Shown here: in pieces, positions 2,661 through 36,458 of the stretch | Layout: each line of letters starts with the position of its first letter | Position numbering within the stretch: position 1 is the first letter of the stretch | Assembly (NCBI GenBank): GCA_964631325.1 | Contig: CAZVWJ010000012.1 | Span: 224 to 64,223, forward strand | DNA length: 64,000 bases | DNA from: an uncultured bacterium | GTDB taxonomy: Bacteria > T1Sed10-126 | Reading direction: 5' to 3' | Notes under the pieces: model-generated | Databases searched by the model: none | What the model saw: the letters and a program-made list of their open reading frames with translations, nothing else | Told to the model about the DNA's origin: nothing | Position numbers and translations under genes: made by a program

Positions 2661-5564
2661 TCAGTTTTCTATTCCGGTTATAGTTTTCATGTATTTCCCA
2701 AACTCTTGGACCTTCTTAATACGGCTATTTTGAAGGTCCTTTATAAACTCTCTCCATTTCTTTGTTTGTTCCCCAGACAAATCATCATAAATAATACCCA
2801 GACATTTTAAGTACCCCGCTGATCTACTGGGTATATCATCTCTTTCCATACGGTCTTTTTGGGTAGGGCTAGCGACCTTATAAATTTTTGAAGACAACTC
2901 GTTAATAGAATCTTCATCTGGATCAATCTCACTTTTCATTTGTTCGTATATCCTACCCAAATAATATACTTTCATTTCTTGTTCAGTAGCGCTATTAATT
3001 CTATTTACGGACTTGGCAAATCTTTGTGTAAAATATTGTTTGACTTCTTCAGTCAGCTTTAGTTCATCTACCATCTCGTCAGTAACGTAATCTATAACGT
3101 CTTGACTGGCATCTAAATTTGAAGAAATTGGTATTTTAAAAATGAAATCTATTAAAAACTTGGTTCTTGGTGCTCCCTTATCTCCTTTGTAAAAATGAAA
3201 GCAAGGTATTAAGAGTCTATTGTTATTCACATCCTTTAAGATTCGCGCGGTTTTACTCAGTAGCTTTTCAAACGCTTCTAAATTAATTTGGTTTTCTAAA
3301 GCTAATATCGAAGCAAAAATGTGATCTGTCTCATCTTTCTTATATCTATCATCTTCATCTTTAAACTCGTCCGCTAAATCAAGCATCTTCGAAATCATGT
3401 TTGAGCGAACTTTAACTGCTTCATCCCCTTCGAGGTAAGAATCAAGTTCCTGGTAATTGTCAAAATACTTTATTTTTCCTGGGACTGGAGCATCTGGATC
3501 AGGCTCTAACGTATCCGCATAATCCTTAAACATTACTGGCTTAACATACTTCGCAACTGCCTTTTCCTCTTCTTGTAATATTTCAATTGCCTTGTCAAAA
3601 CGGGGAGCCGGGTGATCTACGAAGAATTCACTAATACTTTTTGAAATCGTTTCAGAAACGTCGCTGTTAGGCACACTTTCGTGATGTGAAACAAATGCTC
3701 TTAGAATTTCTTCATTAAAACTATTTTCAGCTTTTTCTGAACTTATTAATCGAGCCAAATAGACAAATACCTCTTTCGAATCAACTCGATTTACTGATAG
3801 AATCTCAAAGAGGGGATTAATAGGAAAATCTGTTAAATACTCAGGATCCTGCTGAATCAAGGTGATCAGTCGATCGATTACAACTTTATAAATTTCTGTC
3901 TTCCCTTCTTTATAATCTGAAGCAAGTTTCGCTGACGAAATAAGAATATCCTTCAAATCTTCAAATCTTTCATTCTTATAACATTCGAAAAGCTCTTTCC
4001 GTAAAACCGAAGTGTATGGTTCGATATATTTGATTTCTTCAGGATGGAAATCATTCCGGAACCCTTCTGAATCATAGATAGCTTCCTGGAATACGGATAT
4101 ATTTTCCGAATCTTTATGGGATGGATCAGCGAGATCAATAAAGGGGTCAAGATCCTCCACGTCATTAACTCGGGTTTCTCTCAGAAATGACTTCAACGTG
4201 GCTCCAAGAGATTTGTTTGTAGCATGAACAGGATCATTAAGAGTCTTGTGGAGTGGCTCATACTTTTGCTCTCGCTCGTCTACATTTAAATCAAAGTAAT
4301 CCCTCAGATCTTTTAGTAGAAATTTGTTTTTTTCCAGCCTTTGATAAAAACTCGGGAAAAATTCCTGCAGAACCAAAATTTTTGCTAAAAAATCGAGATT
4401 ACTTGTCACAACATTCCTTTTAATTTCTGGTTCTTCATCATCTTCAGATGTTTCAAGCTTTTCAGCCAATTCTCTCAAAACAACAATATTGTTAAGTATT
4501 TGCTTTATTTTTCTGGGGTTTTTAATTTTTGCCTTGTATAGGACATCTAGAACCTCGTGGGGGAGTTTCACTTGGAGAGTATCGTTCTGTTCATCGATAA
4601 ATTCTTCTGTGTTTTCCGCTTCCAATTTCGGTATGCGGAGCTGAGTTTGGAACATCTTTCTTAAAAATTCTCTACCAAATTTTTCATCAGCATTTGCCTT
4701 TTGTGATATATGAGAGATGAGAGCTTCCTCATCACAAGTAATCACAAATATGCAATCTTCATTTTCCATAAAAGTTTTGACTGAGATTAAAACTTCATAA
4801 GCAATTTCTGGCTCACATCTATCTAAATTGTCAATACCTATTATCAATTTCTCGAAATTCCCTTCCCTGTTTAAGGATTTATTTACAATTGACTGAAAAA
4901 TTTTCTCGTAAGCTCCAGACCATTCTTTTCTCGGATTTAAGGCTCTAATTTGAGGCTTGGCAACATACGAAATCAATTCCTTGATAACAGATATCCCAAT
5001 AATGGTACTTATGATTCCCAGAGATTGAGCAAGACTTCCGTACCAATATGCTATACCGGCTACGACAAAACCTACCGTATAAAGTGTTACGTAAAGTATT
5101 AATTTAGGAGGATTTTTGACTAAATTTTTCCACAAAGTACTTAAATTTGACTGAATTTCCTCAGTGACATCGTATAGTTGAGAAGTAATATCGCTTTCCC
5201 CTAATATCCCATCAGATTCCCCCAATTCATCTCCAATTAATTCATCTATTTGTAAAAGTAGCTCAGTCCGAACAGAGCCCTCGGCGTGCTTCCAAGCGTC
5301 AAAGTTAACACAAATATATTCATTATTTTCTTCTTTGAGTCTATTGAATAATAATTTGACTACTGAACTTTTACCGGACCCCCAAGGACCAAAGAGACCT
5401 ATATTGAATGGAGGATCAACTTTCTCAATTATGGTTTTAAGTGTTTTGGCATATTTTTTTCTCCCAAACTCATCCTCGCCGGGTGAGCCAATTTCTTCGT
5501 CGGGTAAAAGATAATATTCCTCATTGCCGCCAACTTCATTTTGAGAGCTACTCATCAATAACAA
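2661..5564 (-). CDS. KAP-family P-loop NTPase (PifA/Kidins220-like) with transmembrane insert
   Basis: Walker A GLFGPWGSGKSS near N-terminus; hydrophobic helices (LILYVTLYTVGFVVAGIAYWY..IISTIIGISVI) inserted in the NTPase domain as in KAP NTPases; 967 aa. Confidence 0.8.
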   Translation of the reverse strand: MLLMSSSQNEVGGNEEYYLLPDEEIGSPGEDEFGRKKYAKTLKTIIEKVDPPFNIGLFGPWGSGKSSVVKLLFNRLKEENNEYICVNFDAWKHAEGSVRTELLLQIDELIGDELGESDGILGESDITSQLYDVTEEIQSNLSTLWKNLVKNPPKLILYVTLYTVGFVVAGIAYWYGSLAQSLGIISTIIGISVIKELISYVAKPQIRALNPRKEWSGAYEKIFQSIVNKSLNREGNFEKLIIGIDNLDRCEPEIAYEVLISVKTFMENEDCIFVITCDEEALISHISQKANADEKFGREFLRKMFQTQLRIPKLEAENTEEFIDEQNDTLQVKLPHEVLDVLYKAKIKNPRKIKQILNNIVVLRELAEKLETSEDDEEPEIKRNVVTSNLDFLAKILVLQEFFPSFYQRLEKNKFLLKDLRDYFDLNVDEREQKYEPLHKTLNDPVHATNKSLGATLKSFLRETRVNDVEDLDPFIDLADPSHKDSENISVFQEAIYDSEGFRNDFHPEEIKYIEPYTSVLRKELFECYKNERFEDLKDILISSAKLASDYKEGKTEIYKVVIDRLITLIQQDPEYLTDFPINPLFEILSVNRVDSKEVFVYLARLISSEKAENSFNEEILRAFVSHHESVPNSDVSETISKSISEFFVDHPAPRFDKAIEILQEEEKAVAKYVKPVMFKDYADTLEPDPDAPVPGKIKYFDNYQELDSYLEGDEAVKVRSNMISKMLDLADEFKDEDDRYKKDETDHIFASILALENQINLEAFEKLLSKTARILKDVNNNRLLIPCFHFYKGDKGAPRTKFLIDFIFKIPISSNLDASQDVIDYVTDEMVDELKLTEEVKQYFTQRFAKSVNRINSATEQEMKVYYLGRIYEQMKSEIDPDEDSINELSSKIYKVASPTQKDRMERDDIPSRSAGYLKCLGIIYDDLSGEQTKKWREFIKDLQNSRIKKVQEFGKYMKTITGIEN

Positions 5565-8500
5565 CTTCTCAGGACGAGGTTTAGGCGCCAGAGGGGGGCG
5601 GCTTGCTCAATTGGTAGGTACCAAACGAATTTATTGATACCATCCCGGAAAAGCGGAGCCATCTCAGGCCAAATTCTTACAATCTCTTCCATTCTTTCAC
5701 CGAATCGAGAAGCTGACTCTTCTGGTTCTCCTTCAGAAATTGAGGAGGATAGTAGAGCCTCAACTATTGACTCAGCTTCACCGGTTAAATTATTGTCTTC
5801 CTTTGAAGGTAATGGCTTATCAGTTTCTTCAGAAGCCTTTTCTGCTCTTTTTTTAAGATGTTTAAATAATTTCTTTCTTAGATCTTCTTCATCTAAATAC
5901 CCTATCTGTGTGCCAAAGAATTCTAACGCCAGTCGGGAATTAATATCCTCAATCTCAAAAAGTTCATCAAAATCAAATTTTTCAATAACCTCCAGCAACT
6001 TTCCCCTTAACTCTGGATACATTGACCTATGGCCGACAATGGCATTTAACAAAGTCCACGCAATATCTTTACCTGGTTCTTCAATTACATCATTAAGAGC
6101 CTGTCTTGTATATTTTTTCATTAGATCCGACGAGACTAAAAACCCCATGTCTTCTCCAAAAGTCTCTTCGACTACATCATTTCTTGCCCGACCAAGAAAT
6201 GAATTTAAAGCATTCTCCCCAAGAGATGGGTCATTCATAAATTCAGGGTGAATCGATCTTTCATCTTCCTCTCCAACCATGAAGTTTGAAACCAATTCTT
6301 CTTCTACATCCATATCTTCTATCAGGTCAATCGGGAATTTTTCATATCTTGAAAATAAGCCCATGAATAAGAAAGTTCGCTTCTTTACTTCCCTCGGATA
6401 TGCCACATCGTTCCATAACTCAAAGTCCCGATCGAATGTAAGAAGATCAGTTTGTTCCATATTAATCCTAAAATGCTTAAAAATTTGCTCATTATTTATA
6501 CCCGAACGGAGAATAATATTCTGTAATTGAGAAGCGTGTATCCAATTCGCCAGCAAGTATTCCTCTTTGGTTAGCTGTTCGTGATATTGAAGACGGTTCA
6601 GTTCTCGATTCACCCATTTAAGCGTAATCATGAATGATTCGGTATGTAGAGAATCAGGATTCAAGAGCCCGTCTAAAATTTCCTCAGCTTTCTCCAAGGT
6701 CCAGGGATCGTCTTCTTGAAATTGCATTACCAAATTAAACAGGTGAATTAATCGAACAGCCGAAGCCCATTGATCCGATAAATTCTGCAATAAATCAACG
6801 CGATCATCCGAAGACAAGTTTTGTAATTCTTGATAGAGAGGGGCAGGAAAATGTTTTGGAAGATGTGCGAACCGATGGAATGCTTCTTCAAGACCCTCTT
6901 GATTGATTAGTTTTCGTGCTGCCTCTTCTAAAGATTCGTCTATTTCAGTAGCGTCAACTTCTTCATATCGAAGGAAATTTCTGAAAGACTCGGCTTCGGG
7001 AGGGATAAAATCTTCCCTTTTTAATGTTTGCGGCTCTGTGCTGGCCTGAGATTGTAGTTCAAAGTGGTAGAACGGAAGTGATTTCTCACGATATCTATGA
7101 ACTTGTTCCATTCGTTCTTTTAACGAATCTGCTTCTAACAACTCATCTAAGACGTCTTCAAACTCTTGCCTATCTCTATCGAACCACTCCGACCAGGTTT
7201 GTTCCAGAACATCCTCGATAACTCCTTCATCCCTCGACAAAAATCCACATTCAATACTTTCAAACGTAAATTCCTCATCTGTATCTTGATCCACAAATTT
7301 AATGCTATCGCAAAATTCATATTGGGAGTCCAATTCGTTTGGAGAAATTAAAAAAGTTTTCCGACCGGTCCTATCTTGTAACTCTACCTGTTCACTCTCT
7401 CTGTTTACTATAGTTGCGAGCGTCGGCCAAATTTCATTTGGCTTAAATTCGAATCCTGCAAACTCTATGGTTCCTTGAGGCTCTAAAGCAAGTGGATCGG
7501 CTATTCCAGCTAAATTTATATTTTTTTGAATTTTGACTGGCAAATCCCGAAAGAACCGCTGAAGTTGTGCCCGCATAGTTTTCTCTCGCGATTCATCTTC
7601 TAAATCCTCGTCTAAAAAACTAATTAAAAATTCTCGTATCGCTTCCCCCACAGAATTAATGAGAACCCCTTCGTTTAATTCTCTCGGAGCTAACATCCTA
7701 TTGTACAGCCATTGTAAATAATTTTTTCGAAATTTTGACTCCACTTGTGAATCCCCGTGAGTTATTTGAATAGCGTTGCACATAACCCTTCCTATATTTT
7801 GTCCATAAAAGACAAGATCATCCTGTTCATACTTCGTGAGTTCAAGAATTCGACGTATACCAAGCATATCAACAAACAGATTCGAAAATATCCAATTACT
7901 ATATGCTCGCTTCTCATTTTTATTTAAATTACCACTCGACCATATTTCAATTAATACAGCAGATATTTCATGAAATAGATTCATCGTATATCTTACTTCC
8001 CCCATTGAATTTTCAGCTTCAGTATCACTGGGGAATTGCAAATTGTCTTTGTCAATTTGAGTCCCACTAACGTATCGTCTTAAAACTTCAAGTTCATCTG
8101 TTCCTTCCACTGATAGCCCAAATCTATTTTCTTCAAAACTACTCTCATTAAGCCAATACAATATTTCCTCTGAATCTACGGGTAGATACCGTAAATCAGC
8201 TTCCCGCATATAAATCAAGTCACGATAGTAATGCTCTTCACTATAAAAATTATCTATCGTTGATTCAGATGATTCATCTTCTTGATACCTTTCTTCATGG
8301 CTTTGTCTTATCTTCTTTAAAACCTCTGGCATGCCGACAATTGGATTGCCCTGTATGTTCCCATGCCCACTTACATATCTATCATCAGTACAAACGACAC
8401 TCTCTTCTGAAAAATCACCGGTTAAAAGATCCACAAGTACTCTATAATTTGGTTCACGCATTTGTTCATTACTTATTTTTCCTTCCTGATCTTCGGCTAG

Positions 8501-10000
8501 TTCAAGGAACTGATACTTTTCTGGCTGATTTTCCTGAATATGATCGATCAGCGTTTCAATTTCTCCAGCCAGTGATAATCCCTGTTCGATACGCTTTAAA
8601 TTTTGTTCGATTTTCTGTTTTTCATTATTCGTAATAAAAACATTTGGGAAATACTCCAAAACCGACTCCAAAATCCCTTGTCTTTCAAGTTGTTCAATAG
8701 TGTTTCCGCCAAAGTACAAATCATCTTCAAGACTGGGAAGAACATCGTGGTCAACTTCTTCTCCATAACCACCTAAATCTTCTACCTTTGTTTCATACTC
8801 TTCTTCTGACCATTCACCAGATTCATAAATAGCTTTAAGAATTGTTTTGTTATTAACTACCAATTCTTCATATTCCCCAAGTTTGATTTCAGTCAAATTA
8901 CCATGATCATCTCTGACTGGAAGATACTCCACAATAACCCCATCTTTCTTCTTTGCTGTTTCGGCCATATGGATCCAGTCAATATCTTTAACGTCTTGAA
9001 AATCATGCCCTTCATATTCACTCTCGGAAGCATCTAAAACTTTAATTTCATCCTCTTTTATCCGCTCGGATAATCTCTCAAAATTTTCCTTTTGTATCGG
9101 TTGGTGCTTTGACTCACTTTCGGCCTGCTGTTGTAAAAATAAGATTGCAGACTTTGGCAATTTGATAGTTTCAAAGATCTGTTCGATGTGTTCAATCACT
9201 TCCAATTTCCAACCAATCAGTAAACTTGTCATATCCATCACAAATTTTTCAGTTCCTCGATCAATGAATGGATCAGTTCTGTGAGTTAAATCCCTTTGAT
9301 CGGAGGTTAATGATAGCGTTCCGTGTCGATTCATGATTGGAAAAGTCTTCCAATGGCTTTTCAATTGAGTATTTTCATCAAACACTTCCCAGAAAATATA
9401 CGGAAGGGTCGTCCCCATCGCCCCAATCCAAAAATGAAGCGGCATCTTCCCCTGATAATATCGATTCAATATTTCTCTATTTCTTTCTTTTTGCTCCTCC
9501 AGCATTTCCTTTGTTTCTTCAAGGGAGACTGCTCTTAATACATCTGGATCTTCTCCGGCGGACTCTCTCATCTTCTGAAACAGTTCCTTCATCTCATCAC
9601 TATCGTCAAGCCCCAGATTTGTACCGACCGTTACAGCACTTGCGATTAATTGAGGCGTATCAATTTCAAACTCTAAAGCTTTTTCCCAAAGTCGTTTGCT
9701 AATTACTCCCTCATCACCATCTTTTGGTAATAAATGTGCCACTCGTAGTAATAAAAAGGGATCTTCTAACTCCTGAGCTTGACCAAGCAACTCTTCACCG
9801 ATCCTGACAATTTCTTCCTCATCCCCCTTGTAAAGCAGTGATTCAATGTAAAGGTGATAATTCTGGGAGGTAGGCTTATCATCAACTAAATCTTTTGCCT
9901 CACTCTCTGCCTGATCAAAGTTACCAATTTGCAAAAGGGACTTAATTTTTACCTGCCGAAGTTGATTATCCATTTGAAGTTTATTCGTCATAGTACTCAC
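5555..10000 (-). CDS. giant hypothetical protein (1481 aa), acidic, predicted helical/TPR-like N-terminus, no catalytic motif recognised
   Basis: long uninterrupted ORF overlapping both neighbours by 10-20 nt (translational coupling); no Walker A, no nuclease/protease motif found by eye. Confidence 0.6.
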   Translation of the reverse strand: MSTMTNKLQMDNQLRQVKIKSLLQIGNFDQAESEAKDLVDDKPTSQNYHLYIESLLYKGDEEEIVRIGEELLGQAQELEDPFLLLRVAHLLPKDGDEGVISKRLWEKALEFEIDTPQLIASAVTVGTNLGLDDSDEMKELFQKMRESAGEDPDVLRAVSLEETKEMLEEQKERNREILNRYYQGKMPLHFWIGAMGTTLPYIFWEVFDENTQLKSHWKTFPIMNRHGTLSLTSDQRDLTHRTDPFIDRGTEKFVMDMTSLLIGWKLEVIEHIEQIFETIKLPKSAILFLQQQAESESKHQPIQKENFERLSERIKEDEIKVLDASESEYEGHDFQDVKDIDWIHMAETAKKKDGVIVEYLPVRDDHGNLTEIKLGEYEELVVNNKTILKAIYESGEWSEEEYETKVEDLGGYGEEVDHDVLPSLEDDLYFGGNTIEQLERQGILESVLEYFPNVFITNNEKQKIEQNLKRIEQGLSLAGEIETLIDHIQENQPEKYQFLELAEDQEGKISNEQMREPNYRVLVDLLTGDFSEESVVCTDDRYVSGHGNIQGNPIVGMPEVLKKIRQSHEERYQEDESSESTIDNFYSEEHYYRDLIYMREADLRYLPVDSEEILYWLNESSFEENRFGLSVEGTDELEVLRRYVSGTQIDKDNLQFPSDTEAENSMGEVRYTMNLFHEISAVLIEIWSSGNLNKNEKRAYSNWIFSNLFVDMLGIRRILELTKYEQDDLVFYGQNIGRVMCNAIQITHGDSQVESKFRKNYLQWLYNRMLAPRELNEGVLINSVGEAIREFLISFLDEDLEDESREKTMRAQLQRFFRDLPVKIQKNINLAGIADPLALEPQGTIEFAGFEFKPNEIWPTLATIVNRESEQVELQDRTGRKTFLISPNELDSQYEFCDSIKFVDQDTDEEFTFESIECGFLSRDEGVIEDVLEQTWSEWFDRDRQEFEDVLDELLEADSLKERMEQVHRYREKSLPFYHFELQSQASTEPQTLKREDFIPPEAESFRNFLRYEEVDATEIDESLEEAARKLINQEGLEEAFHRFAHLPKHFPAPLYQELQNLSSDDRVDLLQNLSDQWASAVRLIHLFNLVMQFQEDDPWTLEKAEEILDGLLNPDSLHTESFMITLKWVNRELNRLQYHEQLTKEEYLLANWIHASQLQNIILRSGINNEQIFKHFRINMEQTDLLTFDRDFELWNDVAYPREVKKRTFLFMGLFSRYEKFPIDLIEDMDVEEELVSNFMVGEEDERSIHPEFMNDPSLGENALNSFLGRARNDVVEETFGEDMGFLVSSDLMKKYTRQALNDVIEEPGKDIAWTLLNAIVGHRSMYPELRGKLLEVIEKFDFDELFEIEDINSRLALEFFGTQIGYLDEEDLRKKLFKHLKKRAEKASEETDKPLPSKEDNNLTGEAESIVEALLSSSISEGEPEESASRFGERMEEIVRIWPEMAPLFRDGINKFVWYLPIEQAAPLWRLNLVLRSCY

Positions 10001-12182
10001 CTAGCATTCGCAACGTCTCGCGAGGCCTCCCACTGTTAAAAGCCCCCGCCACAGCCATTCTTTTAGCGCTATCAGTCATAACCTTTTCAATCAACTTTTG
10101 TTTATGATCATAAACAAATTCCCAGTCTCCCTGCTGGGCCTTCAACTCGCATAATTCATACAAAAAATCCCCTCGCTCTGTTTCTTTATATTTGGATTCG
10201 AGATATTCTTCCAAATCCTCATACTTTTCGTCTTCATAACCTTTTCGGTGATAAGACATATTTTGAATCTGTTCAAAATAACTGAGATCTTGACATGACT
10301 GGACGGTATCTAAAGCCTTTTCATATTCTCCTTGGAGCAATAGAATTCTGGCTTTCCAATATTTCCATAATTCTTTTGAATCCCCACCAAATATTTCTTT
10401 ACTTTCTTCATGCAGCCAAATGGCATCATCTATATTCCCTCTAGATAATAAAGCAACCAATAATCCAATTACTTCATTAACCCCAGGAGAATATTTTTCA
10501 AAACGCTGAATTACTTCATTAGCGGTAAGTTGGTTAACTACATTAAAATCTCTGGCTGTCCCCCAAATAAAAGCCCCATAATGAATCGAATTTTCGGAAA
10601 GCAATTTTTCAGCGTAATTATTAGCACTTTCTGTATTGCCGGGGTCTTCCAACTCATCTAAATTTGCCTTACAGGCTAATTTCCAGACTTCTAAATCTAC
10701 TGCCTCTCTTTCATTTTCAGTTGCAATATCAATCAATTCATCAAAAGTATCCTGGGCTTCCTGAAGTCTCTCTCGAATATCTTCGTCTTTGATTAGATAA
10801 TGTCTGAAGACAGGCATGGGGGGATTTAAAGGCTGATCTGGGAGAATGACAGGAGAGAAAGCTGAATGATAATAAATTATTCCTTTAGTCCGCTGAACTT
10901 CAAAATTGTCTGGCTCCTCTTCCGCAATTTTCTCGATTTGGTCATATGCCTTTCCTAAATTTTCTTGTAATAAAAATGCTATAGCTTTTAATCGCTTGGT
11001 TTCATAATTTAAGGTGAACTCATCTTCAAATTCATCAAGGCGACTCCAAAAATCTTTGATTTCATTCATTTCCAACAAACAGGCAAGTATTAAATTACCT
11101 GCTTCTATAGTGGAGGGGTCTTCTAGTTGATTTAAAACCTTGCTAGGATTTTCTTCATGGTATAGTACTACAAATTTTTCGTATTCAGTGTTTATATCAA
11201 CCTGTAATTGATCAATTTCTTCGAAAATTTTTCTTGCTTCCGGAAAATCTTCCTCAATAGTGGCTTTTAAAACAGCTTCAATTTTTAATATTTCTGCTCT
11301 AACTTCATTATCATTTAGAAATTTTTCATTTTCTCGGAGGTTTAAAATTTGTTCATATGCACGTCGTGTCCTACCTTGTTTTAGAAGATTTTTCACCTCC
11401 TGAAGTTCTTCAAAAGTCATTTCGGTAATTCTTTCGAAAGCTTGCTCGTTAACAATATTTTTCTTTTTTAATTTTTGTTTTAAGTTTCTATCTGTATTTG
11501 GATTTTCCTCACAAATTACATTAATCCAATGATCTGCCGGTTCCAAAAAACGAGCAACTATATGAGGATGGTCCATCAATTTATCTTTTAATTCTCTAGC
11601 TGACCAAACTTCAAAATCAATTCCATGTTTTTTTAATCTTTGTATTTGGTTTTCAATTACATCATGCACTTGAGTCCGTTGGATATCACTCGCTAAAAAT
11701 AAAATAATTTTCTTAACTCGCTCAAAATCCCAATGATCTTCATTTTCTTCTAATATTCGATTCACAACATTTGTAATAAGTTTTGGTTCTACTTCTACAT
11801 GAGATTTACATTCACCTAAAATAATCTGGTCTTCTGAAGTAATTGCTTTAAGATCAACTCCAAAATCAGATTGGCCTTCTATACCATATAACTCACAAAA
11901 CTCGATATGATTCTCTTTTCTAAGAATATTTAGACAAAGTTTTTCAAATCGTTTTGGAGTCAATTGATAAAAAGGGGGGGATAAATCTAGTTTTATATTC
12001 GGGGTAATAAACTCAGCTTCATCATAAATTGGAAAATCCTCAGGATTAGATTTAGAGTTCTGAAAAACTTTACTACTTGCCTTTTTGTTATAATTTTTAT
12101 CCATTTTTTTCACCTCAGGATCACTGTTATGATCTTTTCTTTTCAATTTTTTCATTGAGTTCACTAAGCGACTCACATTCAT
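9981..12182 (-). CDS. Mrr-like PD-(D/E)xK restriction-endonuclease domain fused to C-terminal TPR/helical repeats
   Basis: N-terminal FEKLCLNILRKENHIEFCELYGIEGQSDFGVDLKAI...ILGECKSHVE matches Mrr_cat (D...E-x-K) pattern; remainder TPR-like; true start may be the internal MDKNYNKK. Confidence 0.65.
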   Translation of the reverse strand: MNVSRLVNSMKKLKRKDHNSDPEVKKMDKNYNKKASSKVFQNSKSNPEDFPIYDEAEFITPNIKLDLSPPFYQLTPKRFEKLCLNILRKENHIEFCELYGIEGQSDFGVDLKAITSEDQIILGECKSHVEVEPKLITNVVNRILEENEDHWDFERVKKIILFLASDIQRTQVHDVIENQIQRLKKHGIDFEVWSARELKDKLMDHPHIVARFLEPADHWINVICEENPNTDRNLKQKLKKKNIVNEQAFERITEMTFEELQEVKNLLKQGRTRRAYEQILNLRENEKFLNDNEVRAEILKIEAVLKATIEEDFPEARKIFEEIDQLQVDINTEYEKFVVLYHEENPSKVLNQLEDPSTIEAGNLILACLLEMNEIKDFWSRLDEFEDEFTLNYETKRLKAIAFLLQENLGKAYDQIEKIAEEEPDNFEVQRTKGIIYYHSAFSPVILPDQPLNPPMPVFRHYLIKDEDIRERLQEAQDTFDELIDIATENEREAVDLEVWKLACKANLDELEDPGNTESANNYAEKLLSENSIHYGAFIWGTARDFNVVNQLTANEVIQRFEKYSPGVNEVIGLLVALLSRGNIDDAIWLHEESKEIFGGDSKELWKYWKARILLLQGEYEKALDTVQSCQDLSYFEQIQNMSYHRKGYEDEKYEDLEEYLESKYKETERGDFLYELCELKAQQGDWEFVYDHKQKLIEKVMTDSAKRMAVAGAFNSGRPRETLRMLGEYYDE

Positions 12183-12564
12183 CAGCCAATTGTTTTAATT
12201 CTTCCCAATCTGTATCTTGAACAGTCTCTTCTGTATCACTTGGATTTGAATCCGGGGTATTATCTGGAGCGAAATTCTGTCTTAGTTCTTCCCCAAACCA
12301 ATTCTCGGTAAATAAAAAAATATTTACTTGGGGTGTATCTTTTCCATCGCTTTTTAAAAAAGGTATAGAACTCCAATCTAAACGAGCTTTCCCAACTTTA
12401 CATAACCAGAAAATTAAGCAAAAAACTAATAAATGAATAAATAAATGTGAAAACCAACGAATATTGTATCCTTCTGGATAAACAAGATCGCTATAGTAAA
12501 ACCTCACCTCATCAATAAATCGAGGTAAACCAAATTGCTTATACTTAATCGTATTGATCCTCAA
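12127..12564 (-). CDS. small membrane protein (one TM helix, acidic tail)
   Basis: 145-aa ORF with hydrophobic segment HLFIHLLVFCLIFWLC; overlaps MTase stop by 20 nt and next gene start. Confidence 0.35.
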   Translation of the reverse strand: MRINTIKYKQFGLPRFIDEVRFYYSDLVYPEGYNIRWFSHLFIHLLVFCLIFWLCKVGKARLDWSSIPFLKSDGKDTPQVNIFLFTENWFGEELRQNFAPDNTPDSNPSDTEETVQDTDWEELKQLADECESLSELNEKIEKKRS

Positions 12565-15500
12565 TTATTTGAATTTCTTCATTTGTGAGTCCATATAGCT
12601 CATAAACTATCCGATCAATTTCTTGGTCGGTTTCTTCGATTTTTTTCTCAATGTTTAATTTTTCGGAGTCCGATGTTACTTGAGTAAGACTTCCATGTAA
12701 ACTGAGCATCCTATCGGCTTTTTCGGCGATTTGATCGCGCAGTTCAACTTCAGTTGAGTTCGATTCATCGATTTGTTTGATGGGGAGTTGCTCCATGTAT
12801 TGGTAGATATAGCGAAGATATCCGCCTCGGTAAGATGAACAGATGTTTTCGTAATAAAAGGCAAGTAGTTTCGAGTTGAGTAAACCCAGTAAATAAGGAT
12901 CGTCACTGGATATTATGTAAGCCGTGTTTACACAATAATAATTGCCATCTCGATCCAGTGTGAAGTTACCCCTTTCAGCAATATCTGGAACTATTAATTT
13001 GGGCTTTTCAAATTCATCGTAATAATCGCAGGCTCGAAGTTCCCACCAGTATTCTCCTTGATCGTATCGTTCCCGAGCTCTTTCCTCATATTGACTCAGG
13101 TATCCGGTAATAGCTGGATACTGTTGCTTCAACCATTGCCATTCATCCGCGTCTTTTGGAGCATTTTCATTAGTCCAACCGTTGGGGAAGAAAATTAGAT
13201 AATGTTCTGGTGACAAGGATGCATATCGCTTGATATCGCGGCCCTTCAAAAATGGTTTAAGCCGTTCATCGCTGGCTGGGTTTTTATCAATTAATTCCTG
13301 ATACTTAGCCGAGTCAATTACAAAGGCTTTGTTCAATCCTGTTTTAATCCCGTAGTGAATTCCACCATTTACGACTTTTTTTAAAGGCTTGGACTGATCC
13401 CTTACTTTACGAAGCAAATCTTGAGTTTCTTTACCTACAAGTGTCCAACTTCCTCCCGTTAGGAATTCCTTATTCATAGGAAATGAATCTTCCCGGAAGA
13501 GAACAGATAAATCTCCGAGAATATCGTCTTGTTCATTGGCAACGTCGAGGGCGGTGAATTCACCATTAAAAGAAGTCGGAGACATCATCAGAATACAGGG
13601 GTAAGTCGTGGCGGTATCGAAAACTGTATAATCGCCGAAATTGATCAGTTTTCGAATCGGTTGGTCATCGAGCCAACTGCGAAGATTCTTTCCGTATTTG
13701 GCTCGCATCCATTTGTTGGACACAATGTAGCAGAAGGTCCCCTCCTGGTTCAATAACTTGTAACCACGTTCGATGAAATAAGTGTAGAAATCCGCGGTGC
13801 CATAATAAGTTTCATAATGATTCTTAAAATATTCTTTCTGTTCTCCCAAGTCCTCCTGTCTGACGTAGGGCGGATTAGCGATAACTACATCAAACCCGTT
13901 ATTTTCCAGGAAGACTTCGGTGAAGTAGAGTTCCCAGAGGAAGAACGGGCGACGGCGGGACTGTTTTATTTCTTCGAGTTCTTTTAGTTTTTCTTCTTCG
14001 TCGTGTTCCTCCAGGGTGGCTTCAATGAGTTCCCAGTGTAGCTCTTCAATTTCTTCGCGTAATTCTCGTTTTTCGCTCTTGCGGACGGCATCCGCGAATT
14101 CTTTTTGAAGTTGATCCAATTCTTCTGCCTTTTTACGGGCCTCACTGTGGCGCTGGAAGAGGTCAGGGGTTCCATGCTGGTTTTGTTGTTCACTCTCTAA
14201 ATTTCCTATTTCTTTTTTTATCTTTTCCAATTCATTGTCCAAACGTTTCTGTTCGGCTGATGGAAGATTACCGGACTGGTGGCGGTCTATATATTGTTTT
14301 TCAAGGGACCGTTGTTTCTCTTTTAATTCTCGGCGGCGGGCTTCGGTATCGGCTTGCCGGTCACGGATAAGTTCGGAGTCAAACAGTTCAATCCCCTCGT
14401 ATTCCTCGACCAGCGAGTCGCCCTGCATAATTCGGTACTCGAGGTTGGGTAGGGGTTTAATCTCTTCATAGTCTTCCTCATCAACGACCAGGGAGAGCCA
14501 GAGGCGGAGCTTGGCGATATCAACGGAACTGGGATCAATATCAACGCCGTAGAGATTATGTAAAATAGCGTGGCGCTTGAGCTCATACTGGCTGCGATCT
14601 TCACCGGAATCAAGATAGGGAGTGAGCAGGCGGCGCAGTTTGACGATCTCCTGCATCAGGCCGACCGGGAAGGCGCCGGAACCGATTGCCGGGTCGCAGA
14701 CTTTAATCTCGGCAAGTAGCGCGTCAATTTTGTTGACCCGCTCACGGATAGAATCGGGAATTTTTTGTTGGCGTTCGGCAAGATCACCTTCCGCAACGGC
14801 CGCTTCGTGTTGAAGCAGAAGATCACCGTGTTCAACGACTAATCTTATGTCCGCTTCAGGAATGTCCCCCCCATCTGTATCTTCCCCCACCGGGGGGGAA
14901 GAGCTTTCACCCTCACCCCGGCCCTCTTCCATCGAGGGAGAGGGAGTTTGGTCCCCCTCATCCGCCCTGCGGGCACCTTCTCCCACCGGGGGAGAAGAAT
15001 CACCCCCATCTTGCTCTTCCCCCATCGAGGGGGAAGAGCTTTCACCCCCACCTGTGTCCTCCCCCGTCGAGGGGGAGGAGATGTTTTTGCTATCTGGGGA
15101 GAGATTATTTTTATTGTTCAAATGTGTGGAGAGGTAATTGACCAGGCTTTCCTGGCACATGTAGTGGACTATTTCGCGGGGGGTGTAGAAAGCGCCCTTT
15201 GATTTGCGGTCCTCGACGTCAAGCATGCGCTCGTAGACCTTGCCCAGCATCTCGGGATCAACGGCGACTTCTTTTTCCAGCGGTTCATCCTCGCGGATGG
15301 TGAAGTTGTAGCGGTCGAAGGTGTCAAAAATCTCGGCGAAGAGTTCGTCGGGGAGGGTGAGTTCAGTCTCGTCCCAGGCGTAGTTATTTATCGGTTCAAA
15401 TAAACCGCCGTTTAAAAAGGGAATGCGGCACTCCAGTTTTGAATCCATGGCGCCCCGGCCGCGGTCGACGGCAAGCGAGTTGTAGAACAGGTGTTCGAGC

Positions 15501-16402
15501 ACGTCGTTGTAAAAATTGTCGTAAGCACAGTATTCGCCCGCAAAGAGCCGGCGGAGAAAATCTTTCGGACCGGTGCCCCACTCGTGGAAAGAGCCGGAAG
15601 CATCGCGTTCGACGCCCAGCCAGCCTTTTTTCTGAATAAAATAGAGGAAGACAATCTGGCCGAGGAGCTTCTTGGCAAAACTGGTCGGGGTAATATCCTT
15701 CTTGTCAAACTCCGCCCGGATTTTATCGTCCGCCGTTAATACCTCTTCGGTGGCCTCTTTGGCTTCCAGGAACAGCTCCCGGTATTGCTCGAAGAACTCG
15801 TCGGAAACCGGTTCAACGCTAAAGGCTTCTTCAAGTTCAGCCAGGCTGGGTTTGCTCTCCTGATCAAGAACCCGGGCGAGCTGTTTCTGGGCCGTATGAT
15901 TTGGTTCGTTGGCCCCGACAAGATAGGAAAAGCGCTTGGCCGGCGATAGCTCCCGCCGGGGCCGGGTCTTCCCGGCCTCAGTTTCCTGGAGGCTGTAGTC
16001 AACCTTGACCAGGGAAAACCGCCAGTCGGGGTGGCCCTCGGTGTGAAAGGCAACCAGCGCCCCGTCCTTCTGATAGCCCCGGCTGTCCCGCAGATACCAG
16101 CCAACAAAATTACGCTGGGCGGTGCGGGCGCGGCGCAGGTTGGAAACCTGGTTGAGATGGACAACCAGCACATGGATGTATTTACCGTTTGGTTCGTCGT
16201 ATTTTCCGAGGCGGCGGTAGGACTTGACGTATTTTTTGTAGGCTTCGGGGATGTTGTAGCCGGACATACTTTTCTGGGCTTCCTCGGAATCATCAAAATC
16301 GCGCTGGAGGAGGTTATTGATAAAGTTATGGTAGCGGGCCTCGTCAAACGGTTGGTCGAAGGTGTTTTTAATAACGTTTTTCGTGGCTTCCTGAACAGTC
16401 AT
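12545..16402 (-). CDS. gamma-class N6-adenine DNA methyltransferase, PglX / Type IIG (Eco57I-MmeI)-like, with TaqI-C-like target recognition region and internal acidic tandem-repeat linker
   Basis: motif I VCDPAIGSGAFP; motif IV DVVIANPPYV; C-terminal GIHYGIKTGLNKAFVI typical of TaqI_C-type TRD; 1285 aa; repeat SPS/PVGE-D/E-GG-ESS inserted upstream of the MTase core. Confidence 0.8.
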   Translation of the reverse strand: MTVQEATKNVIKNTFDQPFDEARYHNFINNLLQRDFDDSEEAQKSMSGYNIPEAYKKYVKSYRRLGKYDEPNGKYIHVLVVHLNQVSNLRRARTAQRNFVGWYLRDSRGYQKDGALVAFHTEGHPDWRFSLVKVDYSLQETEAGKTRPRRELSPAKRFSYLVGANEPNHTAQKQLARVLDQESKPSLAELEEAFSVEPVSDEFFEQYRELFLEAKEATEEVLTADDKIRAEFDKKDITPTSFAKKLLGQIVFLYFIQKKGWLGVERDASGSFHEWGTGPKDFLRRLFAGEYCAYDNFYNDVLEHLFYNSLAVDRGRGAMDSKLECRIPFLNGGLFEPINNYAWDETELTLPDELFAEIFDTFDRYNFTIREDEPLEKEVAVDPEMLGKVYERMLDVEDRKSKGAFYTPREIVHYMCQESLVNYLSTHLNNKNNLSPDSKNISSPSTGEDTGGGESSSPSMGEEQDGGDSSPPVGEGARRADEGDQTPSPSMEEGRGEGESSSPPVGEDTDGGDIPEADIRLVVEHGDLLLQHEAAVAEGDLAERQQKIPDSIRERVNKIDALLAEIKVCDPAIGSGAFPVGLMQEIVKLRRLLTPYLDSGEDRSQYELKRHAILHNLYGVDIDPSSVDIAKLRLWLSLVVDEEDYEEIKPLPNLEYRIMQGDSLVEEYEGIELFDSELIRDRQADTEARRRELKEKQRSLEKQYIDRHQSGNLPSAEQKRLDNELEKIKKEIGNLESEQQNQHGTPDLFQRHSEARKKAEELDQLQKEFADAVRKSEKRELREEIEELHWELIEATLEEHDEEEKLKELEEIKQSRRRPFFLWELYFTEVFLENNGFDVVIANPPYVRQEDLGEQKEYFKNHYETYYGTADFYTYFIERGYKLLNQEGTFCYIVSNKWMRAKYGKNLRSWLDDQPIRKLINFGDYTVFDTATTYPCILMMSPTSFNGEFTALDVANEQDDILGDLSVLFREDSFPMNKEFLTGGSWTLVGKETQDLLRKVRDQSKPLKKVVNGGIHYGIKTGLNKAFVIDSAKYQELIDKNPASDERLKPFLKGRDIKRYASLSPEHYLIFFPNGWTNENAPKDADEWQWLKQQYPAITGYLSQYEERARERYDQGEYWWELRACDYYDEFEKPKLIVPDIAERGNFTLDRDGNYYCVNTAYIISSDDPYLLGLLNSKLLAFYYENICSSYRGGYLRYIYQYMEQLPIKQIDESNSTEVELRDQIAEKADRMLSLHGSLTQVTSDSEKLNIEKKIEETDQEIDRIVYELYGLTNEEIQIIEDQYD
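14860..15085. repeat. intragenic imperfect tandem repeat (encodes SPSxGE(D/E)xxGG(E/D)SS units) with C7 and G7 homopolymer tracts
   Basis: repeated tcttcccccatcgagggggaagagctttcaccc-like units visible in the sequence; tgtccccccc and caccggggggg tracts. Confidence 0.7.
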
Positions 16403-16454
16403 GTGAAACTCCTCAAAACCATTATTGGACAGGATTTACAGGATAAACAAGATC

Positions 16455-16540
16455 TTAATTTAACGCAAAGGCGCAGAGGCGCAAAGAAGTATCTCCGTGG
16501 GGACGGAGGTTGATTATTGATTAACTTTTTTAGCTCGCGG
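16455..16540. repeat. dispersed intergenic repeat cluster (aacgcaaaggcgcagaggcgcaaag + ggggacggaggttgattattgattaacttttttagctcgc)
   Basis: same motifs recur at ~21980-22155, 28329-28354, 28707-28750 and partially at 25558-25600. Confidence 0.75.
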
Positions 16541-16658
16541 GTGGGCGCTGATTAGAGATTAACTCCTCTGCACTATTGCGCGATTATACAAATTTTGCGT
16601 CCGAGCCTGCTGAAGTTTTTTTCGGAGACAATCATTCATTAGATTCTCAAACATGTAA

Positions 16659-16900
16659 TCAGTCAAGCTGAAGTTCCCAGTGCCCCTCTTTTCTGCCGCC
16701 AATACGTTCTAATACATCCTTTTCTCTCAATTTCCTGATATTTTTCTGCACAGCTCGCTGACTTATTCCTATATCTTCAGCAAGTTCCGAAATCGTTGTT
16801 TCTTTATTTTGTCCAATCAATCCCAGAATTTTCTTCTCACTTTTCCCGAATCTTTCCCCGTTAAGTACCCTGGCATGTATTCCATCAAGTATCCTGTATC
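16659..16900 (-). pseudogene. 3'-terminal winged-helix fragment of an AlbA_2-family gene (no start codon, upstream in-frame stop)
   Basis: translates to ..GKSEKKILGLIGQNKETTISELAEDIGISQRAVQKNIRKLREKDVLERIGGRKEGHWELQLD*, aligning with the C-terminus of the 505-aa AlbA_2 protein at 25693-27210; stop and 3' flank (~85 bp) are identical to that gene. Confidence 0.55.
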
Positions 16901-16930
16901 AATGTTTCAGTCAATATCCAGCTCACCTTT

Positions 16931-16978
16931 TACTGTGACATTACTGTGACATTACTATGACATTTACTATGACATTAT
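16931..16978. repeat. 11-bp tandem repeat x4 (tactgtgacat / tactatgacat)
   Basis: directly visible immediately 3' of the AlbA_2 gene stop (16987). Confidence 0.7.
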
Positions 16979-16986
16979 GTTCAAAA

Positions 16987-21400: not shown

Positions 21401-21648
21401 AGTTTTCGCTGGGCCGACTGATAATGTTCAAAAGTCTTTTGGCCCACGTTGATTCCAACTAAAATATGAATTTCCTCGACGGACTCCAGGTGTTCGTAAA
21501 GGCGATGGAAACCGGAAAGACGAAAATAGCCGACGAGGACATCAAAAGTTCTGGCGTCGGGGAGTGTACTTACAAAGCGATCCAGCAGAGAGGAATGTTC
21601 CTGGTTGGTGAAGAAGGTCAGGTCAGTATCGGTTTCTGAACCGTTCAC
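18403..21648 (-). CDS. PLD-family nuclease domain fused to SNF2-family (DEAH) helicase
   Basis: HxK PLD motif DIHAKVYISRF...GSSNFSESGL; helicase motif I GLGKT, motif II VDEAHRFRN, C-terminal helicase motifs (QRSGRVNRIG); 1081 aa. Confidence 0.8.
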   Translation of the reverse strand: MNGSETDTDLTFFTNQEHSSLLDRFVSTLPDARTFDVLVGYFRLSGFHRLYEHLESVEEIHILVGINVGQKTFEHYQSAQRKLDMENFTQAEEQYLQQVQQELELSEDAPEVETGIRTFINWLQSGKLKLRVYPSEDIHAKVYISRFSEADRDYGRVITGSSNFSESGLVGRREFNVELKNREDVRFAEDQFEQLWKESTEITEKFVEQIPRKTWLNDEITPYELYLKFLYEYFEEEINLDRDFDDYLPPGYIDLEYQKQAVAQAQRILNEYGGVFIADVVGLGKTFIAALLAQKMKGQKLILCPPVLEDYWEDTFREFGVRGYKVQSHGKLHHVLRNNPDKYSTILVDEAHRFRNEQTEKYEKLLEICWGKDVILVTATPFNNTEQDIYRQLKLFQEPKQSTIPGVKNLHKFFKGLEKRKRNYDPDDPGYQDVLDEVAEEVREKILKYVMIRRTRSDVEKHYKEDLEKRGVQFPEVKPPHRLLYNFDSGTEEVFEETIQLLKEMDYARYVPLLYLEEPVEEFEKQSQRNIRGFMKSLIVKRLESSFLAFKNTLGRFIESYENFVDMYESGAVYVSKDVNINELWDSAEADNEARLLELVEEDKAKRWAAEKFSDNFIADINKDLQLLRKIKHLWNNVTTDPKLESLLEEIESNELFSKSPAVIFTESAETGEYLYEELNERYPDRVMFYSSSRRLYQGATVGKRVARDRIRENFDPGIEPENGADEIRFLVTTDVLSEGINLHQSNLIVNYDLPWNPTKVLQRSGRVNRIGTPFEEIHIFNFFPTSQAEEHLNLEAIVTSKLQSFHDILGEDAKYLTEAEEVTTHSFFGEQLYEKLNDPETYEKGGDQASPELDYLAKIREVRDQNPELFDRLKKLPKKARTAREITGDNSASGLLSFFRKGNVKSFYLCEEDGAQALPFYRAATLMECEQGTERLDLPDDYYSKLNQNKQQFKELFQEEVEHSRQGGQTNEQFIVQYLQAVENHDKFTESDQQYIRSVIDLVQGARPARQTTRKIKQKLESLDNPTGNPLKILEVLRCHIPDGLLEKESPGSSREDQPREIILSEYLVNAENSGQRGAD

Positions 21649-21733
21649 ATTTCCAACCTCAAATATATTTTTAAAATGATTAGCTCTTCATGCCTAACTC
21701 CGTAAGAACAACATTCAATATTTTAACATCGGA

Positions 21734-22160
21734 AAAAGCTAAATCGAGGATTCTGTCACGGTAAATCAATCTTACCTGATTTTTGGGGGAATTTTAATTA
21801 TTTTTATTGAGGGACAAAGGGGAGCGTGATGGGGGGACCGTCGCAGAGGCGACATAGCGCAGAGGCGGAGAGGCGAAAGAGCATTAAACCTCGTGATGAG
21901 GGAAAATCAAAGGCAACGGCAAAGTCAAAATGGATTGCCGGGTCAAGCCCGGCAATGACGTCGTTGTATGGATTTCCGTGGGGACGGAGGTTGATTATTG
22001 ATTAATTCTTTTAGCTCGCAGATTAGCGCAGAAAGTGCGGATTTATTATTTTTGTAAATCAAGTTCAAAACCTTCGGATCCTCAGATTAGTGGGATTACA
22101 CGGATTGAAGTTCAAATTCAAAGGCAAGATAACGCAAAGGCGCAGAGGCGCAAAGGAAAT
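21734..22160. repeat. composite intergenic repeat block (several repeat families, hairpin ccgggtcaagcccgg)
   Basis: 21734-21810 recurs at 27408-27482; 21860-21960 recurs at 28550-28644; 21980-22020 and 22131-22155 recur at 16461-16536 and 28329-28750. Confidence 0.75.
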
Positions 22161-23171: not shown

Positions 23172-23189
23172 TGAATTCCCTCCGGAAAA

Positions 23190-24245: not shown

Positions 24246-24246
24246 T

Positions 24247-25557: not shown

Positions 25558-25690
25558 CTCGCAGATTGGGGCGGGTGGACGCAGATTAATGATTAATTTC
25601 TCTGCACTATTGCGGGATTATACAAATTTCGTGTTCGAGCCTGCTGAAGTTTTTTATGGAGACAATCATTCATTAGATTCTCAAACATGT
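25558..25690. repeat. intergenic repeat (ctcgcag...tctgcactattgcgggattatacaaattt...) shared with 16536-16660
   Basis: near-identical block continuing into the 3' end of the AlbA_2 gene. Confidence 0.7.
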
Positions 25691-25692
25691 AA

Positions 25693-27210: not shown

Positions 27211-27407
27211 AAAAACCTCTTCTCAATCCTGGTGGACAATGGAATTTTTTGATCTTTTTATAGAAAGACAGAACCAACCTGGAAAATACACACACCACCA
27301 GAACTCCGGGCTCAAACAGTCTTTTAGTTCCGGATTGGCGCGTTAAAACCAACAATGACAAATCGTTAGAAGACTCCGCTTGTGAGACATCAACTATTTT
27401 AGCATTG

Positions 27408-27482
27408 AAAAAAACTAAATCGAGGATTCTGTTACGACAAACACAATATTACCTGATTTTTGGGGGAATTTTTAATTATTTC
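27408..27482. repeat. intergenic repeat (aaactaaatcgaggattctgt...acctgatttttgggggaatttttaattatt) shared with 21734-21810
   Basis: direct visual alignment, ~85% identity. Confidence 0.7.
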
Positions 27483-31880: not shown

Positions 31881-31923
31881 TAACCCTCGTTAAAAACTCA
31901 CAGATAGAGGCGAATCAAGCAGA

Positions 31924-36455: not shown

Positions 36456-36458
36456 GGG

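Follow-up and report, generated by a model that had tools for sequence, protein, structure and literature searches.

The window analysed here is a 64,000-nucleotide stretch of contig CAZVWJ010000012.1 (assembly GCA_964631325.1, positions 224 to 64,223) from an uncultured bacterium, and our subject is the train of defence-type genes at 2661-21648 within it. ORF calling places all large open reading frames (ORFs) of the train on the minus strand, and the co-directionality described in an earlier note on this DNA is correct. The same note counted eight large genes in an uninterrupted run; the train consists of seven ORFs and one gene fragment, and a 584-bp gap (16403-16986) separates the second gene from the third. 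In reading order the ORFs encode a helicase, a Schlafen-type (SLFN/AlbA_2) protein, a DNA methylase (MTase), a doubtful short product (orf145), a nuclease-like protein with tetratricopeptide repeats (TPR; the gene is called Mrr-TPR), a very large protein (giant) and a KAP NTPase. They form three tightly coupled blocks, helicase/SLFN, methylase, and Mrr-TPR/giant/KAP, which are set apart by the gap and by a 440-bp stretch that holds the doubtful ORF. Within the blocks, the stop codon of the helicase gene abuts the SLFN start (TAAATG, 0 nt), Mrr-TPR and giant overlap by 11 nt, and giant and KAP overlap by 1 nt (TGATG). We read the train as a defence island of ordinary type in which, quite probably, two separate systems lie head to tail, here called Module A (21648-12545), of a widespread kind, and Module B (12104-2661), of a rarer one, and in which the steps in GC content show where a conserved core gives way to exchangeable parts. 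This reading stands on the gene anatomy (Table 1), on the conservation of the helicase-MTase pair, on the swapping and low GC content of the C-terminal MTase module throughout its family, and on synteny with a second locus, L082, found in a different sample.

Table 1. Genes and gene parts of the train at 2661-21648, with their positions in the window
Feature	Positions	Strand	Description
Helicase	21648-18403	-	1081 aa, Module A gene 1
SLFN/AlbA_2 protein	18402-16987	-	471 aa, Module A, putative optional middle gene
Methylase (MTase)	16402-12545	-	1285 codons, Module A
MTase codons 1-690	14333..16402	-	N-terminal region, helical region, first MTase lobe; GC3 0.64
MTase codons 690-1285	12545..14332	-	Coiled-coil linker, second lobe, TaqI_C-type target recognition domain; GC3 0.41
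Doubtful ORF (orf145)	12564-12127	-	145 aa from TTG
Mrr-TPR	12182/12104-9981	-	707 aa from ATG 12104, Module B gene 1
giant	9991-5555	-	1478 aa, Module B gene 2
giant, domains by residue			TPR 1-150; HTH_upstream_double_PIN 157-224; two candidate PIN-like alpha/beta domains about 249-560; beta-rich 842-910; HEAT/ARM-like solenoid
KAP NTPase	5555-2661	-	964 aa, Module B terminal gene

The earlier note had reported that GC content changes along the train, and computation of GC, of GC at third codon positions (GC3) and of change-points bears this out: both step down from the helicase to the left end. GC3 is 0.56 in the helicase and 0.54 in SLFN, ranges over 0.54-0.72 in MTase codons 1-700 and over 0.36-0.54 in codons 700-1285, and is 0.24 in orf145, 0.26 in Mrr-TPR, 0.33 in giant and 0.31 in KAP. 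A likelihood scan places the best single GC3 change-point of the MTase gene at codon 690 (window ~14332), where GC3 falls from 0.64 to 0.41 with a log-likelihood ratio (LLR) of 35.3; the highest value among 300 permutations was 7.5. A second, weaker step lies near codon 955 (0.48 to 0.35), and the last ~70 codons of SLFN drop from 0.59 to 0.29 (LLR 11.2, permutation maximum 7.1); helicase, giant and KAP have no significant internal GC3 break in the change-point scan. The block at 2661-12564 has a GC3 below that of every other tested ORF of the window (0.35-0.65). Unlike this left block, the C-terminal half of the MTase gene falls within the range of those ORFs. The lowest value outside the left block, 0.35, belongs to a complex-I-like membrane operon. 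This operon of complex-I/Mrp-like subunits (39878-48515) has GC3 values of 0.35-0.42 and an AT skew of +0.29 to +0.40 on the plus strand, so that core genes of the organism can also be low in GC3.

The first gene of Module A is predicted to encode a helicase-nuclease of the phospholipase D (PLD, HKD)-SNF2 type. It matches the Pfam families PLDc_2 (3.6e-9), SNF2-rel_dom (1.5e-12) and Helicase_C (7.8e-15) and the PADLOC model 'HKD+Snf2' (7e-58), and it carries a single HxK motif (HAK at residue 139), a Walker A motif (GLGKT at 282) and a DEAH box at 349. The SLFN protein joins a Schlafen/AlbA_2 domain (SLFN_AlbA_2, 1.2e-17), an HATPase_c_4-like part and a winged helix (HTH_DeoR, 2.6e-6). The MTase, predicted to be an Eco57I-family gamma-class N6-adenine methylase, matches the PADLOC model REase_MTase_IIG (PDLC03596 type, 6e-235) and the Pfam families Eco57I (7.4e-47), TaqI_C (1.3e-18) and MmeI_Mtase, and has motifs I (DPAIGSG at 570) and IV (NPPY at 843). 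Its second lobe and target recognition domain (TRD) give profile matches to the structures of CamA, BseCI and TaqI (profile positions 746-1164). No Pfam nuclease family is matched before residue 549, and the family consensus, read by eye, has no E-x-K after a conserved Asp in the N-terminal ~180 aa. Between the N-terminal region and the catalytic lobe lies an ~85-aa acidic repeat rich in Ser, Pro, Gly, Glu and Asp (residues ~455-545, 14845-15100), which is built of SSPSxGE-D-GGD units and appears in the DNA as a tandem repeat of 42-nt period plus a 79-nt direct repeat. Homologues of ~1195 aa have no such insert, and it splits the BLAST alignments of the N-terminal MTase half.

In a search of 5.8 billion proteins, MTase homologues of ~1195 aa number in the thousands, the best being ~50% identical. 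Eighty loci were drawn from GTDB genomes with the MTase family alignment. In nearly all of them, across many phyla, a helicase homologue lies immediately upstream of the MTase on the same strand, and in at least six of the 80 (L024, L030, L037 with 43% identity, L038, L041 and L049) an SLFN homologue stands between the two. In 35 loci the slot after the MTase takes changing defence cargo, and the 35 downstream ORFs include OLD/AAA_21-type ATPases, KAP, DarT, RhuM, HipA-like and Abi_C genes. The GC3 of this cargo averages 0.12 below that of the N-terminal MTase part and correlates weakly with the drop in the C-terminal part (r = 0.32).

The intragenic drop in GC3 recurs throughout the family. 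Among 43 related loci with near-full-length MTase genes, GC3 is lower in the part aligned to residues >800 than in the N-terminal part in 39, with a mean drop of 0.11 and a maximum of 0.41. Where the drop is abrupt, it starts near residue ~800 or, in other loci, near ~1000. Other organisms have this kind of break too, in assemblies that are long and closed (L029 and L060, for example). At the protein level, a comparison of 120 proteins gave pairs of homologues whose N-terminal parts are ~100% identical and whose TRDs are only 60-81% identical; in other pairs the N-terminal part, second lobe and TRD are 96%, 91% and 47%, or 95%, 52% and 40%, identical. Since the N-terminal parts of these pairs are nearly the same and the TRDs diverge, the comparison shows that C-terminal modules are exchanged within the family, with two breakpoint classes. 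By its position in the variable coiled-coil linker, the codon-690 break belongs to the upstream class. In addition, the C-terminal half of the window MTase is 50-53% similar to ~1000-aa Type IIG enzymes of the HSDR_N type, about as similar as to its own family, so the module seems common to different architectures; the search behind this comparison was not exhaustive, as it missed the query's own protein and the L082 fragment. The earlier note had proposed TRD swapping in this gene. Such exchange is real at the level of the family, and for the allele in the window composition is the only sign of it. The note had also named the same gene train with the same compositional pattern in distant genomes as what would refute it, and the recurrence of the helicase-MTase pair with a low-GC3 C-terminal part, in 39 of 43 distant loci, speaks against a one-off event in this sense.

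The closest relative of the MTase is P0002, for both halves (57% and 49%, summed BLAST segments). An apparent discordance between the nearest neighbours of the N- and C-terminal halves was rejected as an artefact of counting only the first high-scoring segment pair (HSP); with summed HSPs, both halves lead to P0002, and nearest neighbours do not bear out the earlier picture of this MTase as a chimera. A residual negative rank correlation between the halves is biased, the set having been selected on total score. The P0002 gene belongs to a canonical, overlapping helicase-MTase pair in a 38%-GC island and has a uniform GC3 of ~0.41. Therefore, the difference between 0.64 and 0.41 in the two halves of the window gene is not explained by uniform mutation pressure.

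The border between the MTase and Module B is matched in L082, a 9.5-kb Logan contig. This contig starts inside the C-terminal part of an MTase gene and continues with a 241-aa gene, Mrr-TPR, giant and a TIR_2 protein. The MTase part is 68% identical to window residues 823-1281, Mrr-TPR (696 aa) is 50% identical, and giant is 48% identical, with the same 11-nt overlap between the last two; the TIR_2 protein (2.1e-21) takes the place of KAP. The DNA of the two loci is collinear and 64-70% identical. GC3 in L082 is 0.48 in the MTase part, 0.31 in the 241-aa gene, 0.33 in Mrr-TPR, 0.40 in giant and 0.54 in the TIR gene. Because the order is kept at 48-68% protein identity, the junction of the MTase 3' end with Mrr-TPR is old, neither recent nor an artefact of assembly. 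The 241-aa gene, at 1387-2112 of L082, occupies the position of orf145 and is unrelated to it. It overlaps the MTase stop codon by 4 nt and has a weak adenylate/guanylate-cyclase-like match (E 1e-3).

The earlier note's claim that the MTase stop codon overlaps the next gene depends solely on TTG 12564 as the start of orf145. This ORF gives 145 aa from that codon or 126 aa from GTG 12507, has no ATG, contains one hydrophobic stretch and matches nothing in Pfam, PADLOC or PHROG. With no ATG, no family match and no counterpart in L082, orf145 lends no footing to the proposed translational coupling. The next start is most likely ATG 12104, judged by its place behind a GAGGTG site; it opens Mrr-TPR 440 nt past the MTase stop.

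Three accounts compete with our reading over the GC steps. The earlier note saw a recently assembled chimeric locus, in which donors of different GC content were lately joined and the MTase received a fresh TRD swap. Sharp GC3 steps, above all at MTase codon 690, would fit such an event, as would the rearrangement debris between SLFN and MTase, the duplicated region upstream of the helicase (both described below) and the P0002 gene, whose uniform GC3 resembles that of the C-terminal half of the window MTase and not that of the N-terminal half. However, the gene order shared with L082 is old by its protein and DNA divergence (68/50/48% protein identity for the MTase C-terminal part, Mrr-TPR and giant) and comes with a similar GC3 dip, the intragenic drop is found in most of the distant loci, and the searches brought up neither a donor nor a close relative of any segment. 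We therefore consider a recent chimera unlikely. What stands of the earlier claim is that the locus is mosaic, both in composition and in evolution; the recency is not borne out.

A second account is that the mosaic was made by the metagenome assembly, with a low-GC left part from another organism misjoined in or just after the MTase gene. The low-GC block does lie at the end of a 64,789-bp contig of a metagenome-assembled genome (MAG), and the host-specific intergenic repeats are confined to the higher-GC part. Exact-protein look-ups for MTase, giant and Mrr-TPR returned no match, and the sole Logan match, the independent 4.8-kb contig L001, covers helicase and SLFN only, so no independent assembly spans the junctions of this organism. 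The end of L001 lies close to the tandem repeat at 16930-16977. Against a misjoin, the MTase ORF is intact and collinear with its homologues across the codon-690 break, breaks of the same type are found in the long or closed assemblies L029 and L060, and the junction between MTase 3' end and Mrr-TPR recurs in L082, from an unrelated sample. An assembly chimera is thus highly improbable.

A third account needs no transfer: the GC3 differences would be set gene by gene, through constraints such as amino-acid composition, the level of expression or selection that favours AT-rich variable regions. In its favour, host genes in the window spread over 0.35-0.65 with the complex-I membrane genes at the lower end (0.35-0.42), Mrr-TPR and giant are low in both lineages, and the C-terminal MTase part is lower family-wide whatever the GC content of the host. 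But GC3 varies mostly at synonymous sites, the break is sharp (LLR 35) and its place shifts between loci (~800 or ~1000), the discordance of N- and C-terminal parts among near-identical homologues is real exchange at the protein level, and P0002 shows no drop at all. We regard this account as very unlikely.

A further reading is tentative and rather doubtful, though we give it somewhat more room than a recent chimera. The conserved 5' two-thirds of the MTase gene may act as an anchor for homologous recombination, and a single crossover in the variable linker near codon 690 would swap in a new specificity module and the downstream cargo, here the split TGP-like system of Module B, as one block. 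This would explain the intragenic GC3 break and the joint travel of the MTase C-terminal part, Mrr-TPR and giant in L082. If true, one event would supply both a restriction specificity and a further immune system.

The gap between SLFN and MTase (584 bp, compared with about 35-170 nt in L024, L030 and L037) is made up of repeats and a gene remnant. A few bases 3' of the SLFN stop codon, an 11-nt unit, TTACTATGACA, is repeated 4.3 times in tandem (16930-16977). Part of the gap repeats the 3' end of a second SLFN gene (25571-25842) over 272 bp with 79-83% identity, and inside this copy is a 53-aa ORF with a winged helix-turn-helix (wHTH) domain (16659-16820). This remnant is 63% identical to the C-terminus of that 505-aa SLFN paralogue and matches wHTH Pfam families. 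Host intergenic repeats also occur in the gap, at 16459-16487 and at 16491-16551, the latter a hairpin-forming 61-nt element. In addition, the ~95 bp that immediately precede the helicase start (21711-21804) are duplicated upstream of the second SLFN gene at 27387-27481 with 82-87% identity. The shared upstream region and the copy of an SLFN 3' end before the MTase suggest recombination between paralogous cassettes. The second gene itself (25693-27210, 505 aa), with Schlafen/AlbA_2, HATPase_c_4 and wHTH parts, lies 4 kb upstream of the train. Families of short repeats lie in three intergenic places: ahead of the MTase gene (16459-16551), ahead of the helicase gene (21841-22156) and ahead of the region of the second SLFN gene (28326-28760). 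They include GCGCAAAGGCGCAGAGGCG-type units and the 61-nt element with its CTCCGTCCCCACGGAG hairpin.

Module B starts with Mrr-TPR, which has an N-terminal nuclease domain of the Mrr PD-(D/E)xK type (GVD...GECK) followed by TPR, with weak Pfam matches to Mrr_cat and TPR, the latter also in homologues. The N-termini of P0126 and P0128 align with its residues 232-706, and it matches the N-terminal ~690 aa of fused ~2100-aa family members, one of which, P0130, has a weak N-terminal Mrr_cat match of its own. A word-indexed search for giant returned six relatives only; in an exhaustive HMMER scan of 1.84 billion representatives, 942 clusters passed E<=1e-3 and 391 passed E<=1e-30. Most members of the family are 2000-2300 aa long, and giant starts to align at their residue ~630-700. 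As giant covers the part from there on and Mrr-TPR corresponds to the N-terminal regions, the window carries a split form of what is normally a single polypeptide.

For giant, Pfam PF24407 (HTH_upstream_double_PIN) scores 32.9 bits vs a cutoff of 27, and this family is above cutoff in 7/7 family members. PIN-TPR-GreABC is matched below threshold in 4/7 homologues and Permuted_GreAB-C in 3/7 (14-19 bits vs a cutoff of 27); the latter matches map to giant residues 844-869, in the sole beta-rich domain of the C-terminal AlphaFold2 (AF2) model. The AF2 models of giant have pLDDT values of 73.6 and 77.4. With the model of residues 1-700, Foldseek matches MamA and designed TPR proteins over ~135-150 columns (probability 1.0), and it finds solenoid matches in the C-terminal model. 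The helical-repeat region spans residues ~9-145. The invariant residues D253, E270, D536 and D537 lie at strand ends of the alpha/beta domains.

The terminal gene encodes a KAP NTPase (Pfam KAP_NTPase 3.6e-35, 122 bits vs a cutoff of 20) with a Walker A motif, GPWGSGKS, at 56 and an uncharacterised C-terminal extension of ~600 aa. In PADLOC it matches QatA (1e-25), PDC-S20 and PifA, with E-values of 1e-25 to 4e-23. At L016 13250-15046, in a Geobacteraceae MAG, a 25% identical KAP NTPase directly follows the MTase, and neither Mrr-TPR nor giant is present. The 2.3 kb downstream of KAP hold two small ORFs with no family match and are bracketed by a 44-nt direct repeat of 75% identity (209-252 and 2541-2584). 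This repeat could mark a boundary of the low-GC block. The contig ends <800 bp beyond the window.

A different view of the modules is that all these genes form one integrated system, in which the helicase-MTase pair and the Mrr-TPR/giant/KAP genes cooperate, for example with methylation status gating the Mrr nuclease or giant as the sensor. In its favour are the common direction of all genes, the adjacency of the MTase C-terminal part, Mrr-TPR and giant in two assemblies despite about 50% divergence, and the layered designs of restriction-modification (RM) plus a backup effector that are described for BREX-related systems (PMC12839542). Nevertheless, none of the other 80 helicase-MTase loci (0/80) has Mrr-TPR or giant downstream, and 5/5 other giant homologues with checked context have no MTase neighbour; distant giant homologues stand alone among toxin-antitoxin, insertion sequence (IS) and ImmA/HTH genes, with no methylase nearby. 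Moreover, the modules lie 440 nt apart, with a filler gene between them that is not conserved, and the two co-occurrences are the only ones and possibly come from related organisms. A single integrated system is therefore a distinctly improbable explanation.

In the two-system reading, Module A would work in a restriction-modification-like way. The MTase may recognise an asymmetric site and mark host DNA, and the PLD-SNF2 helicase would translocate with ATP and cut unmarked DNA, presumably as a dimer because it has a single HKD motif. The SLFN/AlbA_2-wHTH protein would be an optional third component. Module B would be a split member of a 'TGP-like' family with TPR, HTH, double-PIN and permuted GreAB-C parts. 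By published analogy it may sense infection, possibly via RNA polymerase, with PIN domains degrading transcripts, and would then fire nuclease or abortive effectors, namely the Mrr domain and the KAP NTPase; KAP is assigned to it because its start overlaps the giant stop by 1 nt. The core at host-like GC3 would comprise helicase, SLFN and MTase codons 1-690, and the exchangeable parts, AT-richer family-wide, would be the C-terminal MTase module and the downstream cargo slot.

Several points weigh against this reading. The proteins have no close relatives, the best being 50% identical for the MTase and 48% for giant. We infer from composition alone that intragenic recombination near codon 690 created this MTase allele, and both halves of the protein have the same nearest relative, P0002. 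Modules A and B are adjacent in two assemblies and could work together. No PIN or GreA fold was found for giant in Foldseek, nor was there such a match in the PDB profile search; the candidate PIN and GreAB-C assignments draw on a medium-confidence model, one context-named Pfam family, sub-threshold matches in homologues and acidic residues. KAP is tied to Module B only by the 1-nt overlap and matches single-gene defence models, and it may be independent cargo and not a Module B effector, since the KAP gene of L016 follows the MTase without Mrr-TPR or giant.

Neither module is a new kind of system. The closest counterpart of Module A is the two-gene pair of a PLD-SNF2 helicase and an Eco57I/Cj0031-like Type IIG enzyme (HKD+Snf2, REase_MTase_IIG), with the same proteins, order, strand, MTase motifs, TaqI_C TRD and variable C-terminal module. 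The window differs from it by the SLFN gene between the two, the 584-bp debris insertion and the ~85-aa acidic MTase insert. Such pairs are known as targets of programmed inversion in bacteria (Milman et al. 2023, PMC9881135); the window shows no sign of inversion, with neither inverted repeats nor silent TRD cassettes that would point to a TRD shufflon. In the classical Type IIG group (Eco57I/MmeI), ~1000-aa enzymes with the same C-terminal half carry an HSDR_N domain, whereas Pfam detects no canonical N-terminal nuclease domain in the window MTase.

Among characterised mechanisms, MANTIS is the nearest to Module A. In MANTIS, DNA that the adenine MTase has not methylated is cut by a dimer of a PLD/SF2 protein with a single HKD motif (bioRxiv 10.64898/2026.09.23.753747; PMC12839542). 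MANTIS and the BREX-related type 2 systems (Gao_RL, MtsA-D) share with Module A an N6-adenine MTase and a partner in which a PLD nuclease with one HKD motif is joined to a helicase-like ATPase. However, MANTIS needs a DUF499 AAA+ ATPase (MtsA) and a DUF3870/DUF3780 protein (MtsB), neither of which is among the seven ORFs by Pfam and PADLOC, and its MTase is of another family than the window MTase with NPPY and TaqI_C. DISARM class 1 was rejected as an assignment: PADLOC gives DrmD-like and DrmMI-like matches only, with no separate DrmA and no DrmB among the seven ORFs. Type ISP enzymes (LlaGI/LlaBIII) combine a nuclease, an SF2 motor, a gamma-class adenine MTase and a TRD, and act on asymmetric sites. 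Their nuclease is of the Mrr type and all functions are in one polypeptide, whereas the window splits them over two polypeptides with a PLD nuclease.

Module B is best compared with the TGP systems, for which Kaur et al. (2021, PMC8195603) describe a constant TPR/GreA-B-C/PIN region combined with one of many N-terminal effectors, including restriction endonuclease (REase) and TIR domains. These systems are mostly stand-alone, and the prediction is that they act on RNA polymerase and cut transcripts (PMC8195603). For one of them, the E. coli ECOR25 protein Agp/Bab, a role as anti-phage sensor has experimental support (bioRxiv 10.1101/2024.11.07.622273). The likeness lies in the TPR, the candidate PIN and GreA/B-C domains, a variable end effector (REase in the window, TIR in L082), rapid evolution and the mostly stand-alone occurrence. 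A variable effector is found at both ends of the module: an Mrr-type domain at the N-terminus, and KAP (window) or TIR_2 (L082) at the 3' end. Module B differs in its order (TPR, HTH, double PIN, permuted GreAB-C, long solenoid), in its total of ~2100 aa, about twice the size, in being encoded by two genes, both in the window and in L082, and in the KAP NTPase that follows, KAP not being among the effectors named in the passage of PMC8195603 consulted here. KAP itself shares a KAP P-loop domain with intact Walker A motif with the defence genes QatA of QatABCD, PifA and PDC-S20; unlike QatABCD, the window gene has no QatB, QatC or QatD partners, and its start overlaps the giant stop.

The locus thus adds a three-gene helicase-SLFN-methylase variant to a widespread, uncharacterised RM-like pair, and a split, Mrr-headed member, with KAP or TIR as terminal gene, to the giant TPR/HTH/double-PIN family, which has been little studied. 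It also serves as an example that sharp GC3 steps inside the genes of restriction-type methylases are a family-wide signature of exchangeable specificity modules. Such steps flag neither a unique recent event nor a misassembly, which is of use for calibrating genome scans.

Promoter and terminator scans gave results at or below chance, no Rfam family was found within 1-30 kb, and the window has no tRNA. The stretch from the helicase to the second SLFN gene includes, at 22413-25323, a row of three genes with TrkA-N/TrkA-C and ion-channel domains (K+ channel-like), which are unusual in a defence neighbourhood. Further away, a cluster at 34348-39675 comprises three carbamoyltransferase paralogues (one of the ornithine type, two N-acetylornithine/YgeW-like), a carbamate kinase and a threonine-synthase-like gene. 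The regions 29478-33090 and 48890-59372 give conflicting taxonomic signals. A pair of SbcCD/Rad50-Mre11-like genes scores best against archaeal Rad50 and Mre11 models, below their cutoffs. Genes of bacterial appearance are nadB, an rfaE-type heptose kinase and a fusion of endonuclease V with a PcnB/CCA-type nucleotidyltransferase.

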